NCBI GenBank assembly: GCA_963809195.1
Contig: CAWEIQ010000007.1
Coordinates: 19,209 to 83,208 of the forward strand
DNA from: an uncultured Actinomycetota bacterium
GTDB taxonomy: Bacteria; Actinomycetota; Actinomycetes; Streptosporangiales; Streptosporangiaceae
Direction: 5' to 3'
Length of the DNA: 64,000 nt
Position numbers and translations under genes: made by a program. The notes under the pieces are model-generated. The model was given only the letters and a program-made list of their open reading frames with translations. It made no database searches and was not told where the DNA came from. Shown here one piece after another: positions 10,450 through 62,150 of this stretch; within the stretch, counting starts at the first letter, position 1, and the number at the start of each line of letters is the position of its first letter.

Positions 10450-10546
10450 CTGCCGAGCGCCCGCGCGGCGAAATCGCCGACGCGCGCGCTCGATAGGCGC
10501 TGAGGGGCCGCGCGGCGGGGTTTCCGACGCGCGCGCTCGATAAGTA
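10450..10546. repeat. Two tandem ~47-50-bp GC-rich repeat units, same family as the senX3-regX3 spacer repeat
   Basis: Both units share the core CCGCGCGGCG-N4-6-CCGACGCGCGCGCTCGATA (10461-10495 and 10508-10542). They end in cTGAGGAGG, which serves as the hppA Shine-Dalgarno. Confidence 0.6.
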
Positions 10547-10559
10547 CTGAGGAGGATGG

Positions 10560-12890
10560 ATGACAAGGCTCGGTTCCGCTCTGGCTGACGGAGCGGCCAC
10601 CGTGACTGGCTCCAATGTGACCTGGGTTGCAGTTGTGGCCGTCATCGCCGTGCTGGCGCTGGCGATGGCGGGCTGGCTGGTCAGGCAGGTCCTGGCAGCG
10701 GGTCAGGGCACCGCGAAGATGCAGGAGATCGCGCTCGCGGTCCAGGAGGGAGCGGCAGCGTACCTGCGCCGGCAGTTCCGTACCCTCGCCGTGTTCGTGG
10801 TCCTGATCTTCTTCGTGCTGCTCGTGCTGCCGGCGGACAGCACTGCGGTCAGGTGGGGCCGGTCCATCTTCTTCCTGGCCGGCGCTCTGTTCTCCGCGCT
10901 GACTGGGTTCACCGGCATGTCGCTTGCCGTGCGCGGCAACGTCCGGGTAGCCGCGGCGGCCCGCGAGTCCGGCGAGCGGGAGGCCACCAGGATCGCGTTC
11001 CGCACCGGCGGGGTCGCCGGGATGTTCACGGTCGGCCTCGGCCTGCTCGGGGCGGCTGCTGTCGTGCTGATCTACAAGTCGAACGCTGCCAGCGTCCTCG
11101 AGGGCTTCGGCTTTGGCGCCGCGCTGCTCGCCATGTTCATGCGAGTAGGCGGCGGCATCTTCACCAAGGCCGCCGACGTGGGGGCCGACCTGGTCGGCAA
11201 GGTCGAGAAGGGCATTCCAGAAGACGACCCGCGTAACGCGGCGACCATCGCCGACAACGTCGGCGACAACGTCGGTGACTGCGCCGGCATGGCTGCAGAC
11301 CTGTTCGAGTCGTACGCGGTGACCCTGGTGGCCGCCTTGATCCTGGGCAAGGCGGCGTTCGGCTCGCAGGGCCTTGTCTTCCCGCTGATCGTCCCCGCGA
11401 TCGGCGTGCTCACCGCGATGGCCGGGATATTCTTCGTCGCCCCGCGCAAGAACGACCGCAGCGGGATGACGGCCATCAATCGCGGTTTCTTCCTCTCGGC
11501 GATCTTCTCCCTCATCCTGGTCGTCATCGCCGCCTTCGTGTACCTGCCGTCTTCGTTCAGCAAGCTGAATGGCGTCACCGATCAGGCGATCTTGCACCAC
11601 TCGGGCGATCCGCGGGTCCTCGCCATCGGCGCGGTGGTGATCGGCCTGGTGCTGGCCAGCGCGATCCAGCTGCTCACCGGCTACTTCACCGAGACCACCC
11701 GGCGGCCGGTCAGGGAGATCGCTGAATCCTCGCGCACTGGGCCTGCCACGGTGATCTTGTCCGGGATCTCCGTGGGCCTGGAGTCTGCCGTGTACTCGGC
11801 GCTGCTGATTGGCGCGGCGGTGTACGGGGCGTTCCTGCTGGGCACTGGCAACGCCACGATCGCGCTGTTCGCGGTCGCACTGGCAGGCACCGGCCTGCTG
11901 ACCACGGTCGGCGTGATCGTCTCGATGGACACCTTCGGCCCGGTCTCGGACAACGCCCAGGGCATCGCGGAGATGAGCGGCGACGTCGAAGGCGATGCCG
12001 CGACGGTGCTGACCAGGCTGGACGCGGTCGGCAACACCACGAAGGCGATCACCAAGGGCATCGCGATCGCGACCGCGGTGCTGGCGGCGACTGCGCTCTT
12101 CGGCGCGTTCCGCACCACCGTGGAGACCGCGCTCGGGAGTGCCGCGAACACCTTCAGCCTGTCGATCGACAAGCCGAACGCGCTGGTCGGCCTCATCGTC
12201 GGGGCGTCCGTCGTGTTCTTTTTCTCCGGCCTGGCGATCATGGCCGTCGGCCGTGCGGCTGGCCGGGTGGTCTTCGAGGTGCGCGAGCAGTTCAGGACGC
12301 ACCCGGGGATCATGGACTTCACCGAGAAGCCGGAATACGGCCGCGTCGTCGACATCTGCACGAAGGACTCGCTGCGCGAGCTTGCCACACCAGGCCTGCT
12401 CGCCGTGCTGATGCCGATCGTTATCGGCTTCGGCTTCGGCTACGTGCCGCTCGGCTCCTTCCTGGCCGGTGCGATCGCCGCTGGCGTGCTGATGGCCGTC
12501 TTCCTGGCCAACTCCGGCGGTGCCTGGGACAACGCGAAGAAGCTGGTCGAGGACGGACACTTCGGCGGGAAGGGATCAGAGGCACACGCGGCCACGGTGA
12601 TCGGCGACACCGTCGGCGACCCGTTCAAGGACACCGCAGGACCGGCGATCAACCCGCTGATCAAGGTCATGAACCTGGTCTCGCTGCTGATCGCGACCAG
12701 CGTCGTCAAGTACGCCGACAATACCGGCCTGCGGGTCGGAGTGGCAGTCGGTGCGCTGGCGATCGTGGTTGCCTCGGTCGTGATCTCCAAGCGGCGCCAG
12801 ACCGGCATCGCGCCATCGGACTCCGACGACGTCGACGGTCCTGCGGCTCCGGCCGACGACGAGCAGCCAACCGCGAAGGCGACGGCCTGA
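10560..12890 (+). CDS. hppA: Membrane-bound proton-translocating pyrophosphatase
   Basis: Intact 776-aa multi-TM ORF with the hallmark motifs GGIFTKAADVGADLVGKVE, DNVGDNVGDCAGMAADLFESY and GDTVGDPFKDTAGP. Confidence 0.95.
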   Translation: MTRLGSALADGAATVTGSNVTWVAVVAVIAVLALAMAGWLVRQVLAAGQGTAKMQEIALAVQEGAAAYLRRQFRTLAVFVVLIFFVLLVLPADSTAVRWGRSIFFLAGALFSALTGFTGMSLAVRGNVRVAAAARESGEREATRIAFRTGGVAGMFTVGLGLLGAAAVVLIYKSNAASVLEGFGFGAALLAMFMRVGGGIFTKAADVGADLVGKVEKGIPEDDPRNAATIADNVGDNVGDCAGMAADLFESYAVTLVAALILGKAAFGSQGLVFPLIVPAIGVLTAMAGIFFVAPRKNDRSGMTAINRGFFLSAIFSLILVVIAAFVYLPSSFSKLNGVTDQAILHHSGDPRVLAIGAVVIGLVLASAIQLLTGYFTETTRRPVREIAESSRTGPATVILSGISVGLESAVYSALLIGAAVYGAFLLGTGNATIALFAVALAGTGLLTTVGVIVSMDTFGPVSDNAQGIAEMSGDVEGDAATVLTRLDAVGNTTKAITKGIAIATAVLAATALFGAFRTTVETALGSAANTFSLSIDKPNALVGLIVGASVVFFFSGLAIMAVGRAAGRVVFEVREQFRTHPGIMDFTEKPEYGRVVDICTKDSLRELATPGLLAVLMPIVIGFGFGYVPLGSFLAGAIAAGVLMAVFLANSGGAWDNAKKLVEDGHFGGKGSEAHAATVIGDTVGDPFKDTAGPAINPLIKVMNLVSLLIATSVVKYADNTGLRVGVAVGALAIVVASVVISKRRQTGIAPSDSDDVDGPAAPADDEQPTAKATA

Positions 12891-59883: not shown

Positions 59884-60250
59884 TCGCAGACCGACGATCA
59901 AGTGACGAGAAGGCGGACCGTGGCCGGGCAGCTTGCGTCGCACGCGCCGACCAGCGCTATCCCGCTACATGAACGCCGGAGAGAGGCCTCATGAACTCTC
60001 CGCGAATTGATGTCGGCCAGCAAGCTGCGCAGATGCGTCGCGAGAAGGCTCTACGCATACCATCAAAGCGTGGATGTGGGGGTGATTGCGGTCAGACGTG
60101 CCTGCTTGGCCGTGTGGCCCGCCGAGGCCGGCGGATGAGCGCTCGGGCCTCGGCGCACCTGAACGGCGCCGCACCGGGGTCCGCCAAGTCCGCGGGCGCA
60201 GCGCCGGAATCTGCTCACATCCGATCAGGCCCCCGACGTAGCCGATTCCC

Positions 60251-61309
60251 ATGCCGAGCGTCCCGACGGCTGGGTCGGTCCGGTTGCCGGTCGGGATTTC
60301 TGCCGTGCTCGGCGTCCTCTCGTCGTCGGCCGTGGTCATCAGCAGCGACGACCGGGTGCTGCAGGCCAGCGAGGCGGCGCGCTCCTTCGGCCTGGTCGAA
60401 GGGGAAGACCTCGTCGTAGGAGAACTACTCGCACTCGCCCGTCAGGTCCGCAGGGACGGTGAGATCCGCGAGGGTGAGATCGACGTCACGACCGGGGCGC
60501 TGAACGAAAGGACGACGAGCTACGCGGTCAGGGTGGCGCCGCTCGGGCCCGACGTCGGCGGTGGCGGGCTGGTACTGCTGCTGGTCGAGGACCAAACCGA
60601 GCGCCGGCGGGTCGAGGAAGTCCGCAGGGACTTCGTGGCCAACACCAGCCACGAGCTGAAGACACCGGTCGGCGCGCTGGCGCTGCTCGCGGAGACGGTC
60701 GAGGATGCGGCCGATGATCCCGAGGCGGTCAGGCGGTTCGCTGGCCGGATGCGGCAGGAAGCGAACAGGCTGACCAATCTGGTTCAGGACATGATCACGT
60801 TGTCGCGGATCCAGGCGGCCGAGCCGATTCCCGATCCGTTGTCCGTTGATCTTGACGCGGTCGTCGCCGAGGCGCTCGATCGCGGCCGGATGAAGGCGAC
60901 ATCCCGCGGCATCGAGCTCGCCTCAACCGGCACCAGGCGGCTGTCGGTGCTGGGTGATGAGGAACTGCTGATCACGGCGCTGCGCAATCTGCTCGACAAC
61001 GCGGTCGCCTACAGCCCTGAGAAGACCAAGGTCGTCGTGTCGACCCGGCTGGACGGCAAGTACATCGTCGAGCTGAGCGTCAGCGATCAGGGAATTGGCA
61101 TTCCGGAGCGGGACCTCGAGCGGATCTTCGAGCGCTTCTACCGCGTCGACCCGGCCAGGTCCCGGGTGACCGGAGGCACTGGCCTCGGGCTTGCGATCGT
61201 GAAGCACGTGACTGCCGCTCATGGCGGAAAAGTAACCGTAACAAGCAAGGAAGGTGCCGGATCAACCTTTACATTGCGACTGCCGGTAAGGCCTGGAGCG
61301 CGATCATGA
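60251..61309 (+). CDS. senX3: SenX3-type sensor histidine kinase; N-terminal membrane anchor not found in frame
   Basis: PAS-like region, H-box FVANTSHELKTPVGAL, and HATPase (NLLDNAVAYSP, DQGIGIP, GGTGLGLAIVKH). An in-frame TAG sits directly upstream of the ATG. Confidence 0.8.
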   Translation: MPSVPTAGSVRLPVGISAVLGVLSSSAVVISSDDRVLQASEAARSFGLVEGEDLVVGELLALARQVRRDGEIREGEIDVTTGALNERTTSYAVRVAPLGPDVGGGGLVLLLVEDQTERRRVEEVRRDFVANTSHELKTPVGALALLAETVEDAADDPEAVRRFAGRMRQEANRLTNLVQDMITLSRIQAAEPIPDPLSVDLDAVVAEALDRGRMKATSRGIELASTGTRRLSVLGDEELLITALRNLLDNAVAYSPEKTKVVVSTRLDGKYIVELSVSDQGIGIPERDLERIFERFYRVDPARSRVTGGTGLGLAIVKHVTAAHGGKVTVTSKEGAGSTFTLRLPVRPGARS

Positions 61310-61463
61310 CCTGCGGCCCGGCGATGGCCTGGTCCTGCACAGACGGACGTGAGCGGCCGCGCGGCGGTTTGCCCGACGCGCGCGATCTGGAGAACCGTGA
61401 GCGGCCGCGCGGCGGGTTGGCCGACGCGCGCGATCTGGAGAGTATGGCCAAGGAGGCAGTCAA

Positions 61464-61467
<4 letters not shown>
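61306..61467 (+). CDS. Repeat-encoded mini-ORF (53 aa), stop/start coupled to senX3 and regX3
   Basis: ATG 61306 overlaps the senX3 TGA (ATGA). TGA 61465-61467 overlaps the regX3 GTG (GTGA). I read no internal stop. The peptide contains RERPRGGL(P/A)DARDLE(N/S) twice. Confidence 0.3.
61349..61444 (+). repeat. 2 x 48-bp tandem repeat in the senX3-regX3 spacer (MIRU-like)
   Basis: gtgagcggccgcgcggcggtttgcccgacgcgcgcgatctggagaacc followed by gtgagcggccgcgcggcgggttggccgacgcgcgcgatctggagagta. The period is a multiple of 3. Confidence 0.85.

Positions 61468-62146
<679 letters not shown>

Positions 62147-62150
<4 letters not shown>

Follow-up and report, generated by a model that had tools for sequence, protein, structure and literature searches.

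The senX3 and regX3 genes of the organism under study are joined by a short reading frame that opens on the stop codon of the kinase gene, closes on the start codon of the regulator gene and contains two units of a 48-bp tandem repeat. As judged from the sequences of the congeners, the conserved feature of this junction is the mini-ORF, not the repeat; the reading frame is older than the repeat and has been kept in phase rather than in sequence. The junction is probably a translational relay, in which the 48-bp repeat would be a separate, tolerated passenger. The junction lies in a window of 64,000 nucleotides, by which we mean the whole stretch of DNA that was analysed.

The senX3-regX3 junction

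The features of the junction, all on the + strand, are the following.

60251-61309, +: senX3 histidine-kinase ORF as read in the assembly, with its TGA stop at 61307-61309 (ORF list)
61306-61467, +: putative relay mini-ORF of 53 codons (ORF list; the bridge recurs in congeners)
61350-61397, +: repeat unit 1, 48 bp or 16 codons (Tandem Repeats Finder, nhmmer, covariance model at 60.7 bits, hairpin pair counts)
61398-61445, +: repeat unit 2, 48 bp (Tandem Repeats Finder, nhmmer, covariance model)
61450-61456, +: regX3 Shine-Dalgarno sequence AAGGAGG, inside the mini-ORF and 7 nt upstream of the regX3 GTG
61464-62150, +: regX3 response regulator gene with a GTG start (ORF list; homologues named RegX3)

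The ATG of the mini-ORF (61306-61308) overlaps the senX3 TGA, giving ATGA at 61306-61309, and its own TGA (61465-61467) overlaps the regX3 GTG (61464-61466), giving GTGA at 61464-61467. This doubly overlapping frame of 53 codons, and the location of the regX3 Shine-Dalgarno sequence inside it, had been proposed in an earlier reading made without database searches (the sequence-only reading); the frame is present in the ORF list, and the position of the AAGGAGG motif agrees. The mini-ORF start reads ATGACCTGCG, and a Shine-Dalgarno-like GGAG is found at 61295-61298, 7 nt upstream of its ATG. The two 48-bp units of that reading were recovered by Tandem Repeats Finder (array at 61348-61441, period 48, 2.0 copies, 95% matches, 0 indels) as the top-scoring tandem array of the 64-kb window. 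Their register had to be moved one base to the right: in the family model each unit opens with TGAGCGG, not with GTGA. Unit 2 is 87.5% identical to unit 1, and the two form imperfect hairpins at about 61351-61387 (unit 1) and 61399-61435 (unit 2). In the frame of the mini-ORF, unit 1 reads ..ERPRGGLPDARDLENR. Both units carry the locus-specific tail GATCTGGAGA, which points to local duplication.

SenX3 contains the Pfam domains HisKA and HATPase_c. RegX3 is 93-96% identical to proteins named RegX3 by their sources, and its homologues carry Response_reg and Trans_reg_C. The nearest named RegX3 proteins among the best 120 homologues come from Streptosporangiaceae MAGs (93-95% identity); the organism is therefore not a mycobacterium, as had been suspected from the neighbouring proteins. 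No mycobacterial RegX3 was found among these 120. The assembly is 72% complete, consists of 8 contigs and looks frameshift-prone, and ORFs called in this single genome have to be treated with caution; despite this, the key features of the junction recur in other genomes. The chance of a stop-free frame of 53 codons is about 0.34 in a window of 69% G+C. The open frame is thus not unusual in itself, and its significance rests on the comparison with other genomes. An Rfam scan of 61000-61800 (E up to 10) gave two matches, both at chance level, so the repeat does not correspond to any RNA family described to date, and a promoter and terminator consensus scan of 60900-61700 gave no promoter-like or terminator-like site.

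Bridging of the junction was assessed in 36 congeners. A start on the senX3 stop (ATGA, GTGA or TTGA), followed by a frame that ends on the TGA of the regX3 GTGA or TTGA, was present in 30 of them, with bridge lengths of 8-53 codons. Two others had a start shifted by 1 nt or 3 nt (TGAcATG, TAAATG), with the end still at GTGA, and senX3 itself extended to the GTGA in another two. Two congeners were without a bridge, indicating that it is not indispensable. Spacer lengths ranged from 19 to 154 nt, and 17 of the 21 distinct lengths were 1 mod 3 (p = 1e-5, which is approximate since the congeners are related); distinct lengths were counted instead of genomes to limit the effect of kinship. The in-frame lengths include 19, 25, 31, 34, 49, 52, 55, 58, 61, 88 and 100 nt. 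Conservation of the mini-ORF peptide is limited to MTCG and (P)AKEA(V/A)K, stretches whose nucleotides have other roles as well; the second of them is the Shine-Dalgarno sequence read as codons. Of 32 bridging genomes, 21 carry a GGAG, GAGG or AGGA motif 5-14 nt upstream of the mini-ORF start, the background being 13%. This Shine-Dalgarno-like motif falls in conserved SenX3 coding sequence, a possible reason for its conservation.

Most bridged congeners have the mini-ORF without any repeat in the spacer, and two have unrelated tandem repeats at this position, with units of 21 bp and 15 bp, both in frame. The sequence-only reading had regarded the repeat as a possible copy-number-variable coupler of kinase and regulator. 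The variability was borne out, in that the number of units differs between species, but the repeat is not the coupler, as the mini-ORF exists without it. A direct 4-nt overlap of senX3 and regX3 (NTGA) was observed in 5 outgroup genomes and in 11 of the 15 named actinomycetes among the matches listed (e.g. Thermomonospora, Nocardiopsis, Nonomuraea, Streptomyces and Frankia). Direct coupling thus appears to be the common state, and the relay would be a derived way to keep the coupling.

We infer from sequence that the mini-ORF is translated and couples kinase and regulator; the repeat would be a passenger with no regulatory role. In this genus the senX3 gene stops sooner, at ATGA, and a short ORF of variable sequence opens on that overlap, spans the spacer and the regX3 Shine-Dalgarno sequence, and closes on the TGA of the regX3 GTGA. 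Ribosomes ending senX3 would restart on the mini-ORF, translate across the spacer, and at regX3 terminate once more and begin anew, which would tie the synthesis of the regulator to that of the kinase. Experiments in M. tuberculosis have demonstrated termination-reinitiation at the AUGA overlap of uPPE2-PPE2 (PMC11260477), and coupling of this kind at overlaps is widespread in prokaryotes (Huber et al. 2019, PMC6728339). The regX3 gene has a strong Shine-Dalgarno sequence of its own, and its independent translation is conceivable.

The dispersed repeat family

The repeat is not unique to the spacer, nor is the spacer of constant length: further copies lie elsewhere in the genome, and spacer lengths differ between species. 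The window contains 4 occurrences of its core, GGCCGCGCGGCGG-N5-CCGACGCGCGCG, to which the sequence-only reading had drawn attention; the expectation from shuffles is 0.01. In the genome and its relatives the repeat belongs to a dispersed family, and the 6.0-Mb genome holds 41 units at 27 loci according to an nhmmer profile search and 39 units according to a covariance model. The arrays consist of 1-4 units, all head-to-tail, with periods or unit lengths of 44-49 bp (mode 48). The consensus of the unit is TGAGCGGCCGCGCGGCGG-cttgt-CCGACGCGCGCGCTCC-ggcaaGCAC. The window contains one further array of the family.

10454-10547, +: second array of the family, two units (period 47 bp) in the H+-pyrophosphatase leader

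The H+-pyrophosphatase gene (Pfam H_PPase) starts with an ATG at 10560, and no bridging ORF was found at the array 10454-10547. Other loci of the family are rpoA-rplQ, ctaD-ctaF, a ketoacyl synthase (KAS)-carboxylase-like gene pair, the aconitase leader and the gene of a BMC-domain protein, besides senX3-regX3; in a congener, a locus lies between a UMP-kinase-type (pyrH-type) gene and frr. The possibility that the repeat is the operator of a one-pathway regulon was rejected, because the flanking genes belong to functionally unrelated housekeeping operons. Of 28 arrays, 16 open with a stop triplet (TGA, TAA or TAG), and at several loci the leading TGA or TAA, in a frame other than that used at the bridges, also terminates the upstream gene. 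A TGA follows the array in 8 of 28 cases; one case in the congener G004 reads TGAG...TGAG and has the same look as a cut-off next unit. In the gene of the BMC-domain protein, three units in frame form the C-terminal tail, which ends with TGATG on the next start.

Units are more alike within arrays (89.7% identity) than between arrays (78.8%; p ~1e-8), from which we conclude that arrays grow by local duplication. Between co-directional genes the sense strand was used in 16 of 21 placements (p = 0.027), six loci lie in divergent leaders and none between convergent genes, all of this with crude gene calls. A six-frame search of this 72%-complete genome gave no match to the RAYT/Y1 transposase family PF01797; the same search, used as a control, gave matches in 6 of 14 control genomes. 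No match to the repeat was obtained in plasmid and phage collections. Transposition machinery or a clear target-site duplication was not identified for the family, and we therefore infer its mobility solely from filled versus empty sites.

Among the genomes of the genus in the collection, the family is present in 19 of 39, with 1-39 units each: five genomes have 39, 35, 32, 23 and 21 units, fourteen have 1-9 and twenty have none. The repeat-rich genomes group in one subclade of the senX3+regX3 tree. Outside the genus, the repeat family is missing from all 140 genomes of the order that were searched, 133 of which represent 37 further genera of the same taxonomic family. At orthologous loci other than senX3-regX3, the number of units was 2 versus 3 and 2 versus 1 between species. 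We propose that the family is a young, genus-restricted interspersed repeat that spreads to new intergenic sites and grows or shrinks by tandem duplication.

The consensus folds as an imperfect 14-bp hairpin of -22 kcal/mol. Counted over 57 distinct units drawn from four genomes, standard pairs make up 95% of the pair cells, compared with 21-58% when the partner is slid. Compensatory double changes are present at three pairs, and the observed count was reached by none of 500 shuffles. An RNA-level role of the repeat, beyond mere tolerance, might lie behind both the conserved hairpin and the preference for the sense strand.

The repeat could in principle be a functional cis element, its sense hairpin acting as mRNA stabiliser, processing site, translation throttle or protein-binding site, with the copy number tuning the kinase-to-regulator ratio. 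The conservation of the hairpin with compensatory changes is consistent with such a role, and so are the sense orientation of most copies and their absence between convergent genes, and the fact that units sit directly upstream of Shine-Dalgarno sequences at many loci. Furthermore, congeners without the repeat have a small hairpin, CTGCC-AAGGA-GGCAG, whose loop and 3' arm consist of the regX3 Shine-Dalgarno sequence (spacer alignments and fold); this hairpin is weakened by the insertion at senX3-regX3. We nevertheless consider a cis element unlikely. Twenty of the 39 congeners do without any copy, only about five genomes have an insertion or a trace of one at senX3-regX3, and the operons flanking the repeats have unrelated functions. 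The near-invariant stems are the expectation for a young family, not a mark of long-term purifying selection, and the folding energy of the unit is unremarkable for its G+C content (z = -0.84), while the whole senX3-regX3 spacer folds no better than shuffles (z = +1.73). The bias towards the sense strand is also explicable by counter-selection of harmful orientations.

Repeat copies in the bridging frame and the ctaD-ctaF junction

Alignments of the congeners revealed clear empty sites at senX3-regX3 and at ctaD-ctaF. In the senX3-regX3 spacer, the genome under study (G000) has two 48-bp units, G008 has one and G010 has one that is degenerate; G047 has at least two, its contig ending within the array, and G051 retains a possible 13-nt remnant of the tail of a unit. 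The insertions have a common right junction before CCAAGGAGG and are all in the ERPRGG frame. G000, G008 and G010 form a clade in the senX3+regX3 tree (support 100/99), which would fit one insertion followed by a change in copy number; G047 is placed elsewhere in the tree and would thus require a second insertion or several losses. The two units would persist in the relay because 48 bp correspond to 16 codons and contain no stop in the frame used, so that the relay stays open.

The ctaD-ctaF junction shows the same arrangement independently. A start on the ctaD stop (TGATG, TTGA or GTGA), together with a TGA on the ctaF ATGA, was found in 19 of 22 congeners. The spacers are 22-133 nt long and come in 15 distinct lengths, 12 of them 1 mod 3 (p = 3e-4, an approximate value as the congeners are related). 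Two full 48-bp units are present at this junction in G000 only, in the ERPRGG frame as at senX3-regX3, and half a unit is left in G008. In this genome the four bridged arrays have periods of 48 bp, versus 44-47 bp in the five unbridged ones. A 48-bp period may accordingly mark translated arrays and a period of 44-47 bp untranslated ones; this rule is just suggestive, because 48 bp is the modal unit length and because G011 has 48-bp arrays without a clear bridging ORF.

The comparison of the two junctions bears on the alternative that the mini-ORF is untranslated, its regular frame being a by-product of tandem-repeat indels of 3n or of shared ancestry. Several of the length differences are indeed whole 3n units (48, 21 and 15 bp), a stop-free frame of this length is readily obtained by chance (the value of about 0.34 given above), and the congeners are related. 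Against this, no single repeat unit yields all the in-frame lengths as its multiples, conservation extends to the start codon at the senX3 stop and to the Shine-Dalgarno-like motif, the pattern recurs at the unrelated ctaD-ctaF junction, and arrays of the same family without a bridging ORF have periods of 44-47 bp in this genome. We regard an untranslated mini-ORF as very improbable.

A relay at senX3-regX3 may be part of a wider pattern. Relay mini-ORFs, kept in frame and free in sequence, might constitute a general operon device of the genus, exemplified by senX3-regX3 and ctaD-ctaF, that filters the repeats inserted into it. If so, translational coupling in the host would have given rise convergently to the architecture of mycobacterial interspersed repetitive units (MIRUs), which would not be peculiar to any single element family, and the number of in-frame hairpin units could be a heritable dial of the kinase-to-regulator ratio. 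We put this extension forward tentatively and hold it to be somewhat doubtful.

MIRUs are used worldwide for the typing of tuberculosis, and the reasons for their form are reportedly still largely inferred from one study of 1997. The present data place an unrelated repeat family of another actinomycete order at the same two-component junction and in the same type of frame, overlapping the flanking stop and start, so that the coupling hypothesis becomes testable in a non-pathogenic soil lineage. They also suggest a general rule, namely that spacers relaying ribosomes accept only in-frame, stop-free insertions, which would turn them into hot spots of 3n tandem repeats. For annotation, the lesson is that gene callers miss bridges of 8-53 codons and that contigs break at repeat arrays.

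Comparison with known systems

The junction resembles known termination-reinitiation pairs (PMC6728339, PMC11260477) in the 4-nt overlap at both ends of the mini-ORF, in the Shine-Dalgarno-like motif before each restart codon and in the short ORF that appears to hand ribosomes to the downstream gene. It differs from them in that two overlaps are chained via an intercistronic ORF between full-length genes, and in that the arrangement was recognised here by the comparison of genomes.

With REP/BIME elements and MITEs the units share a small size, a high G+C content, the ability to form hairpins, an intergenic location and a copy number in the tens; in-frame fusion to genes is also known for some such families (PMC3184786). 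Unlike REP/RAYT systems, the genome (72% complete) contains no Y1/RAYT transposase and the arrays are strictly direct, with no inverted doublets of the REPIN/BIME type. In contrast to REP/BIME elements and MITEs, no copies occur between convergent genes, and the units have one internal hairpin and no terminal inverted repeats.

The closest resemblance in form is that to MIRUs, which are 40-100 bp long, number about 40-50 per genome and occupy operon spacers, with filled and empty sites (Supply et al. 1997, summarised in PMC3184786). They have GC-rich internal inverted repeats, and their ORFs overlap the adjoining genes at both ends (PMC3184786; a further summary is given in PMC12548453). The senX3-regX3 spacer of M. 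tuberculosis contains MIRUs of 77 bp and 53 bp in a strain-dependent number and also shows promoter activity (PMC4213456). The sequence-only reading had recognised the MIRU architecture at the present junction, and this was upheld: about 40 units are dispersed over the genome in head-to-tail arrays, the unit size falls within 40-100 bp, and the copies lie between the genes of operons, mostly in the direction of transcription (16 of 21 sense, with crude gene calls). The likeness extends to the internal GC-rich inverted repeat, to the filled and empty sites and to the varying copy number, here between species. At some loci there is likewise an ORF through the repeat that overlaps the flanking stop and start, and one of the loci is the senX3-regX3 junction itself. 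An ORF with its ends on the flanking stop and start is found at senX3-regX3 and ctaD-ctaF, not at every locus, and these ends lie in host sequence.

True homology with the mycobacterial MIRUs, by way of an ancestral actinobacterial family or horizontal transfer, would agree with the identical operon junction and the alike overall architecture, and the unit in the M. tuberculosis spacer presumably begins similarly to the mini-ORF start ATGACCTGCG. Such homology is scarcely credible: the 48-bp consensus, when aligned locally to the MIRU motifs A and B printed in PMC6286618, scored within 1000 shuffles, the motifs have 0 matches in the genome with up to 4 mismatches allowed, the repeat family is missing from the 140 genomes searched elsewhere in the order, 37 further genera of the host's own family among them, and from the plasmid and phage collections, and MIRU units have their own start and stop, of which these units have neither. 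The alignment to MIRU sequences that the sequence-only reading had envisaged thus revealed no similarity beyond that of shuffles. The host belongs to a Streptosporangiaceae-type genus, not to Mycobacterium, and the units, lacking a start or stop in the frame used, would be 16-codon modules of an older host mini-ORF. An independent or ancestral MIRU-like family had been considered in that reading; the data favour the independent origin and lend no support to the ancestral one, given the dissimilar motifs and a distribution of 19 of 39 congeners against 0 of 140 other genomes. Overall, the sequence comparisons indicate that the family is an independent, convergent, MIRU-like one, which shares the architecture of MIRUs and not their sequence.

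The regX3 Shine-Dalgarno hairpin and a putative ctaD-ctaF relay

In congeners that lack the repeat, the Shine-Dalgarno sequence of regX3 lies within a small conserved hairpin, CTGCC-AAGGA-GGCAG, with a folding energy of about -8 kcal/mol when the flanks are included. In the source genome (G000), the repeat insertion has cut this hairpin down to a 3-bp stem (window 61440-61463). Ribosomes translating the mini-ORF that bridges senX3 and regX3 would melt the CTGCC-AAGGA-GGCAG hairpin. The junction of ctaD and ctaF has a relay mini-ORF of its own (TGATG...ATGA), the phase of which is kept in 19 of the 22 congeners, and in G000 it contains two units of the 48-bp family; in the congener G008 a 3' half-unit of the repeat is left.

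Repeat units at gene junctions
G000 C1:1378856-1378951 (L124/L130): two 48-bp units inside the ctaD-ctaF relay mini-ORF
Window 10454-10547: second array of the 48-bp family in the window, 2 units, period 47 bp
G000 C1:297915, C1:624467, C1:796123 and C3:228662; L116, L117, L119 and L123: loci where the stop leading the unit ends the upstream ORF

Stop triplets at unit boundaries

At the loci in the last entry above, the first TGA or TAA of a unit doubles as the stop codon that ends a long ORF lying upstream, such as rpoA or a UMP-kinase-type gene. Another TGA follows many arrays of the family. A stop triplet may be a preferred target, or it may be duplicated. The second array in the window has an anti-sigma-factor-like gene as its upstream neighbour, and its 3' end, TAC-TGAGGAGG, lies shortly ahead of the ATG (10560) of an H+-pyrophosphatase gene. 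Since this array carries stops in all three frames, it has no bridging ORF.

Spacer repeats and gene calls

The senX3-regX3 spacers L017 (G018) and L020 (G014) contain in-frame tandem repeats that are unrelated to the 48-bp family; one has 21-bp units, which are duplications of the Shine-Dalgarno region (peptide ..QPAKDAAQSAKDAAQPAKEAAQPAKEAAK), and the other 15-bp units (SGPYQSGPYQSDPYQ). This spacer looks like a hot spot for repeats of 3n length. Several database 'RegX3' proteins (P0011, P0017, P0044 and P0050; 310–399 aa) have a HATPase_c domain N-terminal to the receiver domain. These long entries are gene calls running from the 3' end of senX3 through the spacer into regX3, and have probably been either miscalled or fused across spacers of this kind. 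The G000 assembly is 72% complete despite its 8 contigs, which fits a long-read assembly carrying indel errors; such errors may also affect the N-terminus of senX3 (around 60000-60251).

A possible resemblance to the mycobacterial unit

The mini-ORF opens with ATGACCTGCGGCC (window 61306-61318) in many congeners. As a lead only, this opening is very similar to ATGACCTGCG, with which the MIRU (mycobacterial interspersed repetitive unit) between senX3 and regX3 of M. tuberculosis begins.
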